DNA from: a virus
Taxonomy: Duplodnaviria > Caudoviricetes
IMG/VR virus record: IMGVR_UViG_3300028008_001583
Coordinates: 1-59,764 of that record
Length of the DNA: 59,764 nucleotides
Reading direction: 5' to 3' (one strand)
The position numbers and the translations under genes are program-made. Shown one piece after another: positions 44 to 55,257 of this stretch (the stretch's first letter is position 1; each line of letters begins with the position of its first letter). The notes below the pieces were generated by a model. That model was given only the letters and a program-made list of their open reading frames with translations, searched no databases and was not told the DNA's origin.

Positions 44-580
44 ATGATCGAAGGGTTTAAAATACCGCAAGTAACATTTAAAACACGAGTTAGAGATGGA
101 AGTATAGGAGGCGATAATCCTTATCGATGGGAAGATAAAACTACGGATGATTACTTTAAAGGTAAGCGTGTAGTATTATTTTCACTTCCTGGTGCATTTA
201 CGCCAACTTGCTCTACCTACCAGCTTCCGGGCTTTGAAGAAAATTACGATAACATTCGTAACCAAGACATTGATGAAGTTTATTGTATGAGCGTTAACGA
301 TGCATTTGTTATGAATGCTTGGGCAAAGACGCAGGACATTCAAAACGTAAAAGTGATTCCGGATGGATCGGGCAATTTTACTCGCTTTATGGGTATGTTG
401 ATTGGCAAGAATCATTTAGGATTCGGGCTACGCAGTTGGCGTTACATGGCAATTATTAACGATGGTATAGTTGAGAAGTGGTGGCAGGAACCTGGTATTA
501 ATAACGATGGTTCGGACGATGATCCGTACATAGAATCAACACCAGAAAATTGCGTAAGCTATCTTGAACAAAATTTCTAA
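44..580 (+). CDS. Peroxiredoxin, Prx5/type II (Redoxin family)
   Basis: FSLPGAFTPTCS peroxidatic motif, SVNDAFVMNAW, RSWRY; SD AGGAG. Confidence 0.95.
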   Translation: MIEGFKIPQVTFKTRVRDGSIGGDNPYRWEDKTTDDYFKGKRVVLFSLPGAFTPTCSTYQLPGFEENYDNIRNQDIDEVYCMSVNDAFVMNAWAKTQDIQNVKVIPDGSGNFTRFMGMLIGKNHLGFGLRSWRYMAIINDGIVEKWWQEPGINNDGSDDDPYIESTPENCVSYLEQNF

Positions 581-1295
581 AGCACTTATTATTCGCAGGC
601 TCCAAGTTCCGTTATCAATGGAATATGCACAATTTTGTGCAGAGTCTTGCGAAAAACATAATCTAGATTACGAATTTATTGACGCTGTTGAATTTTTAGA
701 ATGTAGAGAAGCATTTAAGTCAGTGGGCGCAAAAAAAATTAATTCCTACAAAAATAGGGCAGGACTGCATAAAATGGGAAACTGTTGCTGTCACGCTTCT
801 CATATCAAATGTTGGAAACGCATTGTAGAATTAGATGAGACTTGTATAATTCTAGAACATGATGCAGTAGTAAAAGGAGATGTGCGTAACATAGAAATTC
901 CTGATATGGTTACTACTACTTTTGGACACCGTATTCAAAATATTGATGACTATACTCCTCCGCACGAAGCAACAAAATTAGTAAGAATTAAAAGAGCATT
1001 AGGATGTCATGCTTATGCACTTACTCCCAAAAGTGCTGAATGGTTATGGGAAGATGCTAGAGTTGGCGTAAAACTTGAGTTAGATTATTATCTTATGATT
1101 AATCCGCCAACTGTATTGCCTTTATATGTTTGCGAACCCCCGCAAGTTGTAGGATGGGAAAGAGCTTCAACAACAAGATTTACTAAAGACAACCAAACTC
1201 CAACGGCACAAATATTTACTGAGATTAATAATCAACATCCTGACTCTATTACTGAAGGTTGGAAAAAAGGATATAAACCTCAAAAAAGTGGTTGA
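564..1295 (+). CDS. Glycosyltransferase family 25-like (start uncertain: TTG 564 or ATG 618)
   Basis: FIDAV, GNCCCHASHIKCWKRI, IILEHDA and HAYALTP match GT25 motifs. Confidence 0.75.
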   Translation: MNKISKALIIRRLQVPLSMEYAQFCAESCEKHNLDYEFIDAVEFLECREAFKSVGAKKINSYKNRAGLHKMGNCCCHASHIKCWKRIVELDETCIILEHDAVVKGDVRNIEIPDMVTTTFGHRIQNIDDYTPPHEATKLVRIKRALGCHAYALTPKSAEWLWEDARVGVKLELDYYLMINPPTVLPLYVCEPPQVVGWERASTTRFTKDNQTPTAQIFTEINNQHPDSITEGWKKGYKPQKSG

Positions 1296-1319
1296 CATTG
1301 TTTGTAATGATGTTATATT
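1292..1319 (+). promoter_or_regulatory. Sigma70-type promoter of the ncRNA
   Basis: TTGACA (1292-1297), 16 bp spacer, TGtTATATT extended -10. Confidence 0.75.
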
Positions 1320-1325
1320 AGTTAC

Positions 1326-1533
1326 ATAAGTTAGGCGACGGTCTAAGTTAGATAGTGCAAGGAACGGTGTTGCGTAGTGACACAACTTGGCTAGTAGCTG
1401 TAGTGGCAACATATGATTGTAGAGATACAAAGATATGTTTTTGGAAGTAACTATCCGATGCTAGGCTCCTCCGAATTTGGCATGAGCTACTAGGAGGTTG
1501 TTGGTAATCATTAAGTCCAACCTATCACCTTAT
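1326..1533 (+). ncRNA. Unassigned structured ncRNA (~210 nt)
   Basis: No plausible + strand ORF; bounded by promoter and terminator; nested helices ATAAG/CTTAT, GATAG/CTATC, CTAGTAGCT/AGCTACTAG, AACATAT/ATATGTT with a GAGA-capped TTGTA/TACAA stem. Confidence 0.75.
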
Positions 1534-1537
1534 TATT

Positions 1538-1570
1538 AAAAGCTCGGCATTCTATGTCGGGCTTTTTCTC
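1538..1570 (+). terminator. Intrinsic terminator
   Basis: AAAAGCTCGGCA-ttcta-TGTCGGGCTTTT followed by T-rich tail. Confidence 0.85.
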
Positions 1571-1576
1571 TTTGTG

Positions 1577-1583
1577 ATAAATA
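1577..1583 (+). promoter_or_regulatory. T4-type late promoter (ATAAATA)
   Basis: gATAAATActatt right after a terminator; motif recurs before structural genes. Confidence 0.75.
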
Positions 1584-1588
1584 CTATT

Positions 1589-1670
1589 GTCAGATAGTGT
1601 GCCGCAAGGCGGACTTATGCTGCACCACAGCGTACTGGATAGAACCCAGATAGGACTACTAAACAGGAGA
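1589..1670 (+). promoter_or_regulatory. Structured 5' leader with three hairpins
   Basis: GCC-GCAA-GGC, TATGCTG-cacca-CAGCGTA, CTGG-atagaac-CCAG directly before SD AGGAG. Confidence 0.6.
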
Positions 1671-1676
1671 AAACAA

Positions 1677-2126
1677 ATGGGAAGACCAATTAATAAAAGG
1701 TTAATGGGAGCGCCAACAGCAGGCGGATCCGAAATCAAAGTAAACTTTCATAACGGCACAGCAGTTAAAGAAGGCTATATTGTAAAGCAAAAAGGCTCAA
1801 AGAAATTTGTATGCGAAGAAATTGAAACAGCAGGCGAATTTACTTGTGTATTAAAAACTGGGGTATTACCAGCAGCATTACAAGAAGGCGAAATGTCAAT
1901 TTCAGTACTAGGCGATGATGGCGAAACATATGGCGTAAGCAAAATTTCAGGCCGTAAAGTTACACTAGCAGCTCCGAGTGCAACAGGTTCAAACGCATTA
2001 GATGGCACATCAATTGCATGGAACTTTACAGTAGACGGCGCAGACGGTGCAGTACAAATTGAAGAAGCTGGCGATGATAACACATTAACTGGTACCGACG
2101 ACGACGACTTCACCGAAGACGCATAA
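1677..2126 (+). CDS. Probable virion structural protein (start corrected to ATG 1677)
   Basis: AGGAG SD before MGRPINK; late promoter; acidic C-terminus. Confidence 0.7.
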   Translation: MGRPINKRLMGAPTAGGSEIKVNFHNGTAVKEGYIVKQKGSKKFVCEEIETAGEFTCVLKTGVLPAALQEGEMSISVLGDDGETYGVSKISGRKVTLAAPSATGSNALDGTSIAWNFTVDGADGAVQIEEAGDDNTLTGTDDDDFTEDA

Positions 2127-24652: not shown

Positions 24653-26455
24653 ATGTCATCAGGATACATTTTAGGAATTTCAAGAGGCCATAATGCAGGC
24701 GTATGTCTACTTAAAGATGGCCAAATTGTTTTTGCTAGTGAAGAAGAAAGATTTACTCGTCACAAATACGACGGCGGCCCGTTGGCAACGATGATGAAAG
24801 TAAAAGAATACACTGATAAAATTGACGCTATTGTTGTGTGTCATACTACAGATTTAAAAGATGGACCTAAGATAGAATATACTGGTGATAATCTTTATTC
24901 TGGATTAGCTAGAAAAATGGGGTTGATTGATCGAAAAGCTGATATACATAGACACCCGCAGTGTATAGACGTCTCTAATCTTCACCATAAAGTACATGCT
25001 GCTTGTGCGTTTTATCGTTCTGGGTTTGACGAAGCTGTTGCTGTCGTTATCGACGGCGCAGGGTCAGCAATGACTGGAGAGACGCAAGACGGTCCTGTAA
25101 CATTATGGGAAGTAGAAAGTATATACGATTGCTCTTATCCAGACAATATTAAAACATTATATAAACATTATGGTTGTAGAGATCCTATTGTTACTGCTAT
25201 TAATCCTAAAACTAATGGAGAACAATTTGGCGATGCACCGGGCCATACATTTACATCGGTTGTTTCAGGACATGCAGGTATTACAAAAGTCTATGAAGCA
25301 GTAACTCAGTATTGCGGATTTCAAGCAATTGAAGCAGGAAAAACAATGGGATTGTTTCCGTACGGAGCCGAAAATGAAAATATTCCTAAATTGTTTACAA
25401 CAGATACAAAAATTCCATTATCTAATCGTACTATGATAGTTCCAACATATCCAAATGGTGCTATTGTAAATCATTATAATTATGATGAATTATCGCCTAG
25501 TCCAACGGGTGACGAGACTGATTGGACCGAATACCAAAATAGAAGAGATTTAGCGTATGCTTGTCAAACACAAACACAAGAACAATCACTTGATATAATA
25601 CTTTCCGCAGTTAAAATGTCTGGTAAGAAGAAAGTAGTGTTAAGTGGAGGATACGGATTAAATTGCGTAGCAAACTACTGGTATTTGAATAGATTAAATG
25701 AAGAAGGTATCGAATTGTTTGTTGAGCCTATTTCAAACGACGGTGGAACGGCTATTGGAGCAGCTCTATTATACTATCATTCTGTAGAGCAGTCAGAGTT
25801 AAGACGACCTAGAGAGATATATTTAGGACCTCAATACAATTATACTGACGATGAAATTAATAAACTTGCCGAAGAATACAATGCAATTGTTGAAGATGCA
25901 ACAGACGAAAAAGTTATTGAGTTAATGACAAATAAAAATATTGTAGCAATGTTTCAAGGCAGAGCAGAAAATGGTCCTAGAGCATTAGGCAATAGAAGCT
26001 TAATGTTTGATCCAACATTTGAAGACGGCAAAGACTTTGTTAACGAAATTAAACGTAGAGAATATTTCCGCCCGTTTGCTGGGTCTATTCTTGCTGAAGA
26101 TGCACACGAATGGTTTGACCTACGCGGTATGGAAGATAGTCCGCATATGATGTATGCTGTTAACTGTCAGCCAGGGATTGCTGAAAAAATTCCTAGCATT
26201 ATTCATGTTGACGGAACTTGTAGGATACAAACAGTTAATGAAGAAGAAAATCCTCTTTATTATCGTGTGATCAAAGCATTTAAAGAAAAGACAGGAGTAC
26301 CAATCATCTTTAATACTAGTTTTAACCTTGGCGGCGAGCCACTAGTTGAAACACTCGAAGATGCACTTTGGACCTTAAGCGAAAGTAAGATTGAATATCT
26401 ATATTTGCCTGAATACGGAAAACTTCTTACAGTCGGAAATTGGACAATTGCTTGA
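24653..26455 (+). CDS. O-carbamoyltransferase (NodU/CmcH/TobZ family)
   Basis: EEERFTRHK, HHKVHA, VIDGAG, GKTMGL, SGGYGLNCVAN, GPRALGNRS, KRREYFRPFA, HVDGTCRIQTV, NTSFNLGGEPLVET. Confidence 0.95.
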   Translation: MSSGYILGISRGHNAGVCLLKDGQIVFASEEERFTRHKYDGGPLATMMKVKEYTDKIDAIVVCHTTDLKDGPKIEYTGDNLYSGLARKMGLIDRKADIHRHPQCIDVSNLHHKVHAACAFYRSGFDEAVAVVIDGAGSAMTGETQDGPVTLWEVESIYDCSYPDNIKTLYKHYGCRDPIVTAINPKTNGEQFGDAPGHTFTSVVSGHAGITKVYEAVTQYCGFQAIEAGKTMGLFPYGAENENIPKLFTTDTKIPLSNRTMIVPTYPNGAIVNHYNYDELSPSPTGDETDWTEYQNRRDLAYACQTQTQEQSLDIILSAVKMSGKKKVVLSGGYGLNCVANYWYLNRLNEEGIELFVEPISNDGGTAIGAALLYYHSVEQSELRRPREIYLGPQYNYTDDEINKLAEEYNAIVEDATDEKVIELMTNKNIVAMFQGRAENGPRALGNRSLMFDPTFEDGKDFVNEIKRREYFRPFAGSILAEDAHEWFDLRGMEDSPHMMYAVNCQPGIAEKIPSIIHVDGTCRIQTVNEEENPLYYRVIKAFKEKTGVPIIFNTSFNLGGEPLVETLEDALWTLSESKIEYLYLPEYGKLLTVGNWTIA

Positions 26456-28248: not shown

Positions 28249-28260
28249 TTTATTTGATTG

Positions 28261-28267
28261 ATAAATA
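28261..28267 (+). promoter_or_regulatory. T4-type late promoter
   Basis: gATAAATActata, then SD GGAG. Confidence 0.7.
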
Positions 28268-28285
28268 CTATAGATGGAGTAATAG

Positions 28286-37830: not shown

Positions 37831-38970
37831 TCATTTACTATTCTTTATAATCTGCGTTGTTGAATATCCGCCTACTGTAGGTATAATATGCACATCAGTT
37901 AAATCATGTCCTACAACAGTTTCAACAGTATAATCTCCGCCTTTTACAATCAAGTTAGGCTGTATATGTTTAATTAACTCATAAGGAGTATCTTGTTCAA
38001 AAACGTGAACTTCATCTACCCAAGGTAGTATAGATATCTGTTCAACACGTTTTTCTATATTGTTTATTGGACGGGCGTTGCCTTTTAGGCGCTTTACGCT
38101 TGCATCTGAATTAAGCCCAACTACAAGTTTGTCGCCTAAACTACGTGCTTCTTTTAATAAATTAAAATGTCCTGTGTGCATAATATCAAACACACCGTTT
38201 GTAAAGATTACACGTTCTTCAATATCACTGCGTGTAAGTATATGTGTACCTACGTGCTGTACTGCACGTCTAGATCCTTTAATAGCAAGTTCTAAACATT
38301 GCGTATAACCATAATTCTTAGTTAAACCGTATACAAATGCAGCTAAGAAACAATCACCTGCACCAGTAACATCTGATACTTCTACTTGTGCAACAGGCAG
38401 ATTATACTCAACACCATCTATACTAGCAAGTACATTATCACCGGCATTAGTAGTAATAATATTACCTTGCCACTGACAAAACCCAAACTTAGTAAATTCA
38501 CTGTTATTAGGTTTTACTAACCATGCGTCTTTATATTGAGTTGCATGTTCTTTAGGATCTACAATAATCTTACAATCAAACTTATTAATATGTTCAATAA
38601 TTCTTAGAGATTCGTCTAGTACACCTTTGTTATAATCACTTAATATTACATAATCGTATTGTGAAAAGTCACTACGTAATACATTTCTTAGCACAGCAGA
38701 ACCGTCTGCATCTTTGTCATCGTCTATACGTGTAATATAATGTCCGTCACATATTATTCGTGTCTTAATACTACGTGGTTGATTTGTTTCAAATAATGTA
38801 ACATCAACTCCTAGACTTTTAAGATTTTCATATACAAGTCCAGCACCACCTAATGTTTTAACTTCGTGTTGATATTTGACCACAGGTACTGGAGCCTCAG
38901 GGCTTATACGTTCTGAAGTGCCATAAATATATTTGTCAACGATTACATCGCCAAAAACTAATACTTTCAT
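37831..38970 (-). CDS. hldE: Bifunctional heptose-7-P kinase / heptose-1-P adenylyltransferase
   Basis: RISPEAPVPV, LSDYNKG, VDPK, DVTGAGD (PfkB); FTNGVFDIMHTGH, GLNSDASVKRLKG..RP, KGGDY, YSTT. Confidence 0.95.
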   Translation of the reverse strand: MKVLVFGDVIVDKYIYGTSERISPEAPVPVVKYQHEVKTLGGAGLVYENLKSLGVDVTLFETNQPRSIKTRIICDGHYITRIDDDKDADGSAVLRNVLRSDFSQYDYVILSDYNKGVLDESLRIIEHINKFDCKIIVDPKEHATQYKDAWLVKPNNSEFTKFGFCQWQGNIITTNAGDNVLASIDGVEYNLPVAQVEVSDVTGAGDCFLAAFVYGLTKNYGYTQCLELAIKGSRRAVQHVGTHILTRSDIEERVIFTNGVFDIMHTGHFNLLKEARSLGDKLVVGLNSDASVKRLKGNARPINNIEKRVEQISILPWVDEVHVFEQDTPYELIKHIQPNLIVKGGDYTVETVVGHDLTDVHIIPTVGGYSTTQIIKNSK

Positions 38971-42024: not shown

Positions 42025-42046
42025 TATTTATCGCCAACGATAAATA
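42025..42046. promoter_or_regulatory. Palindromic divergent late promoter pair
   Basis: TATTTATCG-ccaa-CGATAAATA between gp14 and gp13. Confidence 0.8.
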
Positions 42047-42063
42047 CTATACGGAGAAACCAT

Positions 42064-52428: not shown

Positions 52429-53604
52429 ATGTCAAACTACTTTTTTAGCGAAAGCGATCTTACTCCGTTATATAATGCAGTTCCATCATTTATAGAAGAG
52501 ACTGTCTCGTTGTGCCATGTATGCTACAATCATTTGCCTGCATTAAAATATGAAAAAGATGGAAAATTATATCTTGTAAAATACTGCAAAGATCACGGTA
52601 TACATCATTATGTTATTGAAAATGATATAGACTTCTATCAAAGTTTAAATTGTGAATACAACAAGCCTTGGGACTTTAACGGCGGTGTTATGATCGAAGG
52701 AAGTGATAGATGCAATTTAGATTGTCCGCATTGCTATCATATTCCAAATAATAAAATACAAGATCCTGCACAAGAACTTTTAATGTCTCAAGTTGCAGAT
52801 ATTGAATCTAAAATGAGATGGCCGGGAGATCCCTTTTGGGTTGTGCTTTTAGCAGGTGCAGAACCTACTCTAAGAAAAGACTTTCCGTACCTATTAGAGA
52901 GAATAAAAACAGACTATAATAATACTATACAATGCTATGTAATGTCAAACGGAATAAAATTTGAAGATGTAAATTTTGTAAAATCGTCAAAATCTGCAGG
53001 ATTAGATAGTGTGTGCTTTGGTTTAAATCATCCTACATATAATAACAATATGATAATTAGAAACAAACAAGAACGTGCAGTTTATAATATTTTAGAAGAA
53101 GACTTAGGACTAAATTATCTTAGTTATACTATGAATAATTTTAACGAATTAAATGATATTATGCAAGAAATTTTATATAAAGGATGGACACCAACACATT
53201 TTAGAATTCGTTACGGAAGTGATATTGGAAGAAATACTGGACAAGAACGATTGTTTTTAAGTGATGTCTTTAAAAGTGTACAAAGATGGTGTCAAGATAA
53301 TAATAAAAGTTTTGAAATTATTGAACCGGCTGATAACAACATATATCACATAATGGTTAAAGTAGAAGACAAATATATAAGATTAATACAGTGGTGTGAC
53401 GAATACGATATTGATATGGAAAGTTTGAAATCAGGACCTTGGAGTGATTTTACGCCAGGCTCTATAACTAATTTTTTAAATCAAATTATTAGAAGAAATG
53501 CGTGGAAAAACAAAGGATTAACTCTTTTAGATAGCCCCCCAGAAAGATATCACATGAGACAAATACCAATAACTGATAAACTAGATTTAAAAAAGCTAAT
53601 ATAA
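52429..53604 (+). CDS. Radical SAM protein with N-terminal Cys/His metal-binding domain
   Basis: CNLDCPHCY (CxxxCxxC), GAEPT, SNG; N-terminal T.SLCHVC...K.C.DHG. Confidence 0.85.
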   Translation: MSNYFFSESDLTPLYNAVPSFIEETVSLCHVCYNHLPALKYEKDGKLYLVKYCKDHGIHHYVIENDIDFYQSLNCEYNKPWDFNGGVMIEGSDRCNLDCPHCYHIPNNKIQDPAQELLMSQVADIESKMRWPGDPFWVVLLAGAEPTLRKDFPYLLERIKTDYNNTIQCYVMSNGIKFEDVNFVKSSKSAGLDSVCFGLNHPTYNNNMIIRNKQERAVYNILEEDLGLNYLSYTMNNFNELNDIMQEILYKGWTPTHFRIRYGSDIGRNTGQERLFLSDVFKSVQRWCQDNNKSFEIIEPADNNIYHIMVKVEDKYIRLIQWCDEYDIDMESLKSGPWSDFTPGSITNFLNQIIRRNAWKNKGLTLLDSPPERYHMRQIPITDKLDLKKLI

Positions 53605-55239: not shown

Positions 55240-55257
55240 TACGTTGATAAATACAAT

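Follow-up and report, generated by a model that had tools for sequence, protein, structure and literature searches.

A divergent manA-class RNA of an uncultured marine jumbo phage, possibly a free-standing early small RNA

The virus record IMGVR_UViG_3300028008_001583 (Duplodnaviria; Caudoviricetes) contains about 380 non-coding bases between a gene for a family-25 glycosyltransferase (564-1295) and a gene for a 149-amino-acid "MGRP..." protein (1677-2126). The window analyzed here is the entire record of 59,764 nucleotides, whose completeness is rated at 18%. A previous sequence-only reading placed in this gap an independently transcribed, structured non-coding RNA of the + strand that resembled no known family. 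The locus therefore raises the question whether such an RNA exists, to which class it belongs, and whether it regulates the gene behind it or acts on its own. Our analysis places the RNA in the manA class (RF01745), and we assign a probability of roughly 55% to the reading that about 245 nucleotides, from approximately 1326 to 1571, form a manA-class RNA of a marine jumbo-phage branch that is a free-standing early small RNA acting in trans.

When Rfam covariance models are run on positions 1150-1750 with an E-value threshold, RF01745 aligns to 1331-1531 of the + strand over all its model positions (1-192) with 46.5 bits; the E-value is 8.5e-11 in this 601-base scan and 2e-12 in a single-family search of the whole record. 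Among the consensus nucleotides, the GUG after the closing helix, the UAAC loop, GGUA...UCC, and the 3' tail are kept, and several others differ. Other Rfam families give weak matches alone on 1150-1750 (E ≥ 0.12), all of them over the terminator, and the RF01745 search of 14 control genomes gives no match. At gathering thresholds, freshwater-2 (RF02980) at 1598-1679 is the sole Rfam match in the whole window. A scan of the window for tRNA and tmRNA finds none, and positions 1200-1700 have no blastn match among 50,697 phage records.

The gathering score of RF01745, 55.2 bits, is an operational cut-off and not a structural feature. Sixteen of 30 related viral records contain a manA match, which lies above this cut-off in five of them (56.3-59.8 bits). 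In four of the 30 records the match occupies the window position ahead of the MGRP gene; three of these exceed the cut-off (G003, G005, and G020) and one reaches 54.7 bits (G021). In G006 and G007 the match is found about 10 kb away. With RF01745, the highest score of a homolog at the same site is 58.6 bits and that of other sites in the related records 59.8 bits, and nine of 11 further homolog loci scanned yield 29.7-55.4 bits, the latter value belonging to L117. Bridging sequences match both RF01745 and the clade model R1 described below, with 70.2 bits (R1) and 58.6 bits (RF01745) for L019 and L013, and 72.5 and 56.3 bits, respectively, for L068. The sequence-only reading had found no known family and had named a strong Rfam match as the result that removes novelty. 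As RF01745 aligns in full length and same-site homologs in related phages exceed the gathering score, the novelty is largely removed, albeit the score of the window copy itself stays below the curated cut-off. Judged by these model alignments, the RNA is a divergent member of an already catalogued class and not a new kind of RNA.

Homologs were collected by two routes. For the MGRP protein, 226 relatives were found in viral contigs; 80 of the loci were kept, and blastn detects the RNA in 19 of these. The 16-base invariant word of the RNA led to at least 120 further stretches, and homolog counts obtained with this word are counts among the matches listed. A structure-blind MAFFT alignment (A2) comprises 90 distinct cores and the window, that is 91 rows, and contains six chance word matches (L096, L102, L124, L144, L181, and L193) as well as a truncated copy (L135), which were removed later. 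The covariance model R1 was built from A2 and guided a second alignment of 95 rows. R1 recognizes a single copy in the window (233.7 bits); of the 80 MGRP loci, 49 contain copies, always on the + strand and upstream of the gene. The truncated copy (L135:4192-4417) seems to have arisen by a natural deletion: it breaks off after the GNRA-capped hairpin, and a late-promoter-like word and a freshwater-2-like leader follow at once.

Folded as a single sequence, the + strand reaches -74.9 kcal/mol with a z of -2.84, as compared to -2.28 for the minus strand, and because this beats chance just mildly, the case for an RNA rests on comparative data. The fold that was tested consists of the pairs of the Rfam alignment, moved to window coordinates, and of a loop-loop pairing, 1482-85/1508-11, recognized by eye, which together make 58 pairs. 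In the MAFFT alignment, with the junk rows still included, 87.8% are paired, as opposed to 73.7% after shuffling, and double changes occur at 45 of the 58 pairs; none of 500 shuffles reaches any of these measures, and slid partners pair in 38-42%. In the model-guided alignment, 91.2% are paired (73.0% after shuffling), double changes occur at 49 of the 58 pairs, and covariation amounts to 0.529, compared to 0.197 in shuffles, none of 500 being as high. This second alignment leans towards its model, from which the pseudoknot is absent. Covariation among homologs, which the sequence-only reading had proposed to collect upstream of MGRP-type genes and which here also include those found through the RNA word, supports a structured RNA on the + strand.

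The strand is also indicated by the G-U pairs, which the sequence-only reading had already noticed. Among 94 rows, UG is found in 65, 43, and 77 at three pairs and GU in 31 and 37 at two others; since such frequent + strand G-U pairs would turn into A-C mismatches if the minus strand were the transcript, the RNA is that of the + strand. Hairpin lengths differ between homologs by insertions and deletions.

The single helices are listed in Table 1. In the junction helices 6-9, double changes are seen at 24 of 25 pairs (5/6, 3/3, 11/11, and 5/5). The closing helix carries little covariation evidence because its 5' strand sits inside the 16-mer with which most homologs were collected, and the inner stem of the branch hairpin is paired in just 68.7% because the length of this hairpin varies. 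For the pseudoknot 1482-85/1508-11, the model-guided alignment shows double changes at all four pairs with 78-86% of cells paired, the MAFFT alignment shows covariation at three of four pairs with 89.8% paired, and at least six different complementary word pairs exist among the homologs. The Rfam consensus has complementary words at the corresponding places as well, and the pairing thus probably corresponds to the one marked "pseudoknot?" in the manA figure legend of the original description (Weinberg et al. 2010; PMC2864571), a question mark against which there is now clear covariation.

Of the structure proposed by eye, the hairpins at 1331-1346, about 1368-1382, 1409-1438 (GAGA at 1422-1425), and 1441-1458 and the helix 1351-1355/1522-1526 recur in the covariation-supported fold. 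About half of the proposed long-range pairing finds no support. Counted together with the retained helix 1351-55/1522-26 in the 91 rows, the helices 1326-1330/1529-1533, 1383-1388/1495-1500, and 1391-1399/1485-1493 are paired in 70.2%, no better than the 70.0% of shuffled alignments, and their covariation of 0.078 (0.075 in shuffles) is reached by 104 of 500 shuffles. A further proposed hairpin, 1459-1482, is incompatible with the stem 1391-96/1459-64, which is 97.9% paired and shows double changes at five of six pairs.

Table 1. Positions of the RNA, its helices and signals, and neighboring features in the window
Feature	Position	Strand	Details
Family-25 glycosyltransferase gene	564-1295		Basis: Pfam
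Sigma-70-type promoter	1292-1319	+	-35 at 1292-1297, 16-nt spacer, TG extension, -10 at 1314-1319
manA-class RNA core	1331-1531	+	RF01745 positions 1-192; clade model R1 spans 1323-1546
5' hairpin	1331-1336/1341-1346	+	Double changes at 6/6 pairs; 81-94% of cells paired
Closing helix	1351-1355/1522-1526	+	99.1% paired, almost invariant
Branch hairpin	1359-1388: 1359-60/1387-88, 1368-1373/1377-1382	+	Inner stem: double changes at 5/6 pairs, 68.7% paired
Four-way junction	1391-1464	+	Stem 1391-96/1459-64 encloses three hairpins; helices 6-9 are 91-99.6% paired
Junction hairpins	1397-99/1405-07; 1409-14/1433-38 and 1417-21/1426-30; 1441-45/1454-58	+	GAGA loop at 1422-25 in the second
Hairpin containing the 5' pseudoknot word	1468-1497: 1468-72/1493-97	+	Word 1482-1485 inside; 98.6% paired, double changes at 4/4 pairs
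3' hairpin containing the 3' pseudoknot word	1500-1521: 1500-04/1517-21	+	Word 1508-1511 in loop; 100% paired
Intrinsic terminator	1538-1575	+	Hairpin 1538-1566, 13-pair stem, 5 G-C pairs, T-rich tail
Late-promoter-like 9-mer	1576-1584	+	Between terminator and next gene; outside the RNA, marks its 3' boundary
Late-promoter-like 9-mer, all sites	1576-1584, 28260-28268, 42039-42047, 55246-55254	+	
Freshwater-2 RNA (RF02980)	1598-1679	+	67.4 bits, gathering score 49.9; MGRP leader including ribosome-binding site and start codon
MGRP protein gene	1677-2126	+	149 aa; listed open reading frame; structural-type gene

Both signals that the sequence-only reading had assigned to the ends of the RNA are conserved. 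The promoter TTGACA-16-TATATT at 1292-1319 has a perfect -35 and five of six -10 positions, which makes 11 of 12 consensus matches, and it is the only match to the extended promoter pattern in the window. The pattern TTGAC-N16-19-TAnnnT precedes the RNA in 92 of 95 homologs, the -10 ends exactly 3 nt before the model start in 86 of the 95, and the TG extension is present in 76. A start of the RNA near 1324-1326, a few bases after the promoter, seems probable. As the promoter is near-consensus and of the sigma-70 type, host RNA polymerase would probably make the RNA early in infection. At the other end, the hairpin at 1538-1566 followed by a T-run has counterparts (hairpin and T-run, dG ≤ -6) in 64 of the 87 distinct homologs with enough downstream sequence. 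In 61 homologs the terminator begins 9-14 nt after the closing helix, which it does not overlap, and its stem sequences vary widely, as is expected if the hairpin alone matters. The same promoter is found at the manA copies of related records that exceed the cut-off, and hairpin and T-run terminators follow these copies, too. The region had been described as free of open reading frames, and indeed no long one is present, those touching the RNA being one of 31 aa on the + strand (1355-1450) and two on the minus strand (87 and 75 aa).

Behind the terminator, the late-promoter-like 9-mer occurs four times in the window, against 0.93 expected, always on the + strand and just before an open reading frame. 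Its 7-mer core is found at 21 sites on the + strand, including the four 9-mer sites, and at six on the minus strand; 11 of the + strand sites stand 11-42 nt before the start of an open reading frame of at least 150 aa. The word seems to resemble the T4-type late promoter, and its position before many long + strand open reading frames suggests that late transcription in this jumbo phage is of the T4 type. The late-type word and freshwater-2 both precede the MGRP gene, which therefore has its own promoter and leader. Since the terminator (1538-1575) and the late-type promoter (1576-1584) intervene, the manA-class RNA is not in a 5' UTR position here, and the independent transcription claimed by the sequence-only reading agrees with this arrangement. 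The window and seven of 11 homolog loci scanned have freshwater-2 next to the manA-class RNA. Pairing between the two RNAs gave a mean z of 0.01 in 68 pairs, a crude test in which predictions of long duplexes are diffuse. An 8-base word of the RNA (1350-1357, with the 5' strand of the closing helix) was noticed by eye a second time at 1592-1599, at the predicted start of the late transcript before freshwater-2; this second copy is kept in eight of 13 aligned relatives and may be due to chance.

Canonical manA RNAs have been reported from marine samples, T4-like cyanophages, and two γ-proteobacteria, in potential 5' UTRs and as a probable riboswitch, in the passages devoted to them in the original paper (PMC2864571). 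Among cultured cyanophages, RF01745 scores 181.6 bits in P-SSM2 and 123.6 bits in S-SSM7 and does not match in Syn9, S-RSM4, or S-SM2. A blastn search with the P-SSM2 copy retrieves 42 phage records, all of them cyanophages or marine viruses. The RNAs of P-SSM2 and S-SSM7 start about 6-9 nt after a promoter with 12 of 12 consensus matches, and among 12 cultured loci the strict promoter pattern is found in nine and a terminator in three (P-SSM7, S-SSM5, and P-HM1). What follows may be a terminator, a tRNA, metabolic genes, or gp32. In S-SSM7, a tRNA-Gly stands directly at the 3' end of the RNA and no protein gene is next to it. As the cultured cyanophage copies share it, the promoter-anchored start is general in the manA family, and the following sequence varies. 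The S-SSM7 copy (NC_015287 151441-151634, L215) contains an annotated 43-aa coding sequence, SSSM7_180, that is probably spurious.

A literature search on manA RNA returned no functional study and no known ligand; the matches to "manA" in PMC10043782 proved to be words beginning with "mana" only. A passage of the S-CREM1 paper says of manA that its regulatory role "remains to be further verified" (PMC9964418).

A free-standing early small RNA seems the most likely reading because the downstream gene has its own late-type promoter and freshwater-2 leader. The RNA would fold into the 5' hairpin and a closed multi-branch core, with a four-way junction, two 3' hairpins, and the loop-loop pseudoknot, and would end at its own intrinsic terminator, while the gene behind would be read from the late-type promoter through the freshwater-2 leader. 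The highly conserved junctions may serve to bind a small molecule or a protein, and the RNA would act away from its own transcript instead of switching the downstream gene. With a strong promoter at a fixed distance, a terminator that is constitutive, and a next gene that has its own promoter, the locus fits such an RNA better than a leader switch, and this layout argues against the label "leader riboswitch" for at least this manA branch.

Several observations weigh against this reading. With 46.5 bits, the window copy falls short of the gathering score, and the standard Rfam cut-off leaves it unannotated. R1 detects none of 12 cultured-cyanophage manA loci (E ≤ 1e-3) and also misses L202 and L203; because of this failure, the link to canonical manA rests on the Rfam model and the bridging sequences. 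A recognizable terminator is lacking in 23 of the 87 homologs, which run into other conserved non-coding sequence or straight into the late-type promoter. One of four seawater metatranscriptome runs (X2) gave no contig over the RNA; the contigs of RNA runs show presence, neither ends nor levels, and might stem from DNA carry-over. The remaining objections concern what lies downstream. A MGRP gene stands just behind the RNA at 43 of 66 evaluable loci. In P-SSM2, purL begins 16 nt after the manA RNA with no terminator between them, and genes also follow closely in P-RSM6, P-HM2, and P-SSM7. Rfam types manA as cis-regulatory, as does the 2010 paper where it treats this motif (PMC2864571).

These last points are the strength of a cis-acting riboswitch, in which the core would be an aptamer, the hairpin 1538-1566 its expression platform, and a ligand would decide between stop and read-through into freshwater-2 and the MGRP gene. 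An aptamer followed by a terminator is a usual riboswitch layout. The distances of 16-46 nt between the RNA and a protein gene in P-SSM2, P-RSM6, and P-HM2, with no terminator between, and the MGRP starts within 450 nt fit as well. However, one might expect an anti-terminator, and none was found: in 59 distinct cases the terminator arms pair with the aptamer as shuffled arms do (mean z -0.02 and -0.29), and the arms vary freely while the 3' part of the aptamer is conserved. The terminator keeps its distance from the closing helix, and the MGRP gene has a late-type promoter of its own. Moreover, RNA and MGRP gene occur apart in both directions. The MGRP start lies within 450 nt in 43 of 72 rows found with the RNA word, is absent in 23, and cannot be judged in six that are too short, and R1 finds no RNA at 31 of the 80 MGRP loci; the linkage is frequent and not obligatory. 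The tRNA that follows the RNA in S-SSM7 points in the same direction, and we regard the riboswitch as unlikely.

Alternatively, the RNA might be a generic 5'-terminal module of early phage transcripts that would serve in protection or processing or act as a decoy to engage a host nuclease or defence protein, and the following terminator, tRNA, or gene would be secondary. Its position immediately behind a strong promoter (92 of 95 homologs here, with 12 of 12 consensus matches in P-SSM2 and S-SSM7, and in nine of 12 cultured loci) and the varied downstream contexts would be well explained, but a mere stabilizer needs no 200 or so nucleotides with invariant junction bases and a conserved pseudoknot, and we consider this explanation quite improbable. 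That there is no functional RNA at all, and that a fold due to chance, an element acting at the DNA level, or a short coding region was mistaken for one, as the mildly unusual fold with its close minus-strand value and the overlapping short open reading frames might suggest, can practically be dismissed in view of the compensatory changes at 49 of 58 pairs (0 of 500 shuffles), G-U pairs frequent on the + strand only, hairpin lengths varying by insertion and deletion, and the significant alignment, over its full length, of a curated RNA family.

The RNA of the window shares many features with canonical manA. The elements follow in the same order, namely 5' hairpin, closing helix, branch hairpin, four-way junction, and two 3' hairpins, and both are marine, phage-borne, and directly preceded by a strong sigma-70-type promoter (P-SSM2 and S-SSM7). 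Unlike canonical manA, the jumbo-phage branch scores 29.7-59.8 bits and not the 123.6-181.6 bits of cultured cyanophages, several conserved words differ in the window RNA, and an internal loop and an additional stem, capped by the GAGA loop, make the middle hairpin of its junction longer. Its carrier is a jumbo phage with a large terminase similar to those of the Pseudomonas PA5oct group and is not a T4-like cyanophage, and this branch is usually closed by its own terminator and leads no gene.

Riboswitch-containing small RNAs that act in trans, such as SreA/SreB of Listeria and EutX/Rli55, have known ligands (SAM, AdoCbl) and known targets. The present RNA similarly combines an aptamer-like fold with a short terminated transcript and could act away from its own locus, but in contrast to those RNAs its trans action is merely suggested by the gene layout. 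Freshwater-2 is, like the manA-class RNA, known from comparative analysis only, and differs as an 84-position leader with three small hairpins on a separate transcript from a late-type promoter. Among the papers listed by a literature search on freshwater-2, all were unrelated, and the main text of the 2017 paper does not contain it (PMC5737381). The other orphan riboswitch candidate of marine cyanophages, wcaG (RF01761), appears together with manA in the part of the 2010 paper that deals with them (PMC2864571), and in phage S-CREM1 it lies 370 nt from manA according to a table of PMC9964418. At the gathering score wcaG has no match in the window. manA-II, a 3-stem junction with two hairpins from Leptotrichia as described in a passage of PMC11109978, shares the name only.

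Since its description in 2010, the manA RNA has counted as an orphan "riboswitch candidate". The present locus and about 90 relatives extend the family to uncultured marine jumbo phages, in a branch that the Rfam cut-off mostly misses. It is tempting to extend the argument and to regard manA-class RNAs in general not as leader riboswitches but as early phage RNAs that are autonomous, anchored to a promoter, and active in trans, for example by sensing metabolites or sequestering proteins during host takeover or in counter-defence. The ancestral or true mode would then be the one seen in the jumbo-phage branch, where terminators are constitutive, and the cyanophage cases would be the same module without a terminator, a generalization that we put forward tentatively and hold to be possible rather than probable.

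Contigs covering the RNA were obtained from three of the four seawater metatranscriptome runs, spanning 1348-1521, 1348-1476, and 1282-1528. Their ends (1348, 1476, 1521, and 1528) are variable, one carries adapter letters, and they are not usable as transcript ends. The k-mer depths of 89-204 over the RNA and about 2-6 on the flanks cannot rank expression, and the conserved cores pool relatives.

With regard to the carrier, the large terminase of the window phage is 54% identical to those of Pseudomonas PA5oct-like jumbo phages (285-288 kb) and more distant from those of Agrobacterium phage Atu_ph07 and Vibrio jumbo phages. PHROG matches in the window include tail sheath, tail tube, and virion proteins. 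Related records reach 169 kb at a rated completeness of 47%, and the carrier genome is therefore probably larger than 300 kb. Taking the terminase, the PHROG matches, and the related records together with the seawater metatranscriptomes as the source of the RNA-library contigs containing the stretch, the carrier is an uncultured marine jumbo phage and not a T4-like cyanophage.

The MGRP protein has no Pfam or PHROG family, and in a protein atlas search all its matches stayed below 0.9 and were hypothetical viral proteins. MGRP proteins make up a large viral family of considerable diversity (loci L002-L201); they are about 115-155 aa long and have a conserved basic N-terminus, and weak leads point towards tail or head-fibre families.

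Ten of the loci without a terminator (L087, L110, L121, L140, L146, L155, L169, L191, L197, and L199) show, between the RNA and the next open reading frame, 200-300 nt of other conserved non-coding sequence containing hairpin-like words, which may be a further RNA element; an Rfam scan of this sequence in L121 found nothing. The window also encodes proteins of the auxiliary-metabolism type, among them a redoxin/peroxiredoxin (44-580), the family-25 glycosyltransferase mentioned above, a Nol-like carbamoyltransferase (24653-26455), a heptose kinase/adenylyltransferase-like protein (37831-38970), and a radical-SAM-like protein (52429-53604). In cyanophage P-SSM7, the canonical manA RNA is situated directly before a gene for a Nol-like carbamoyltransferase.

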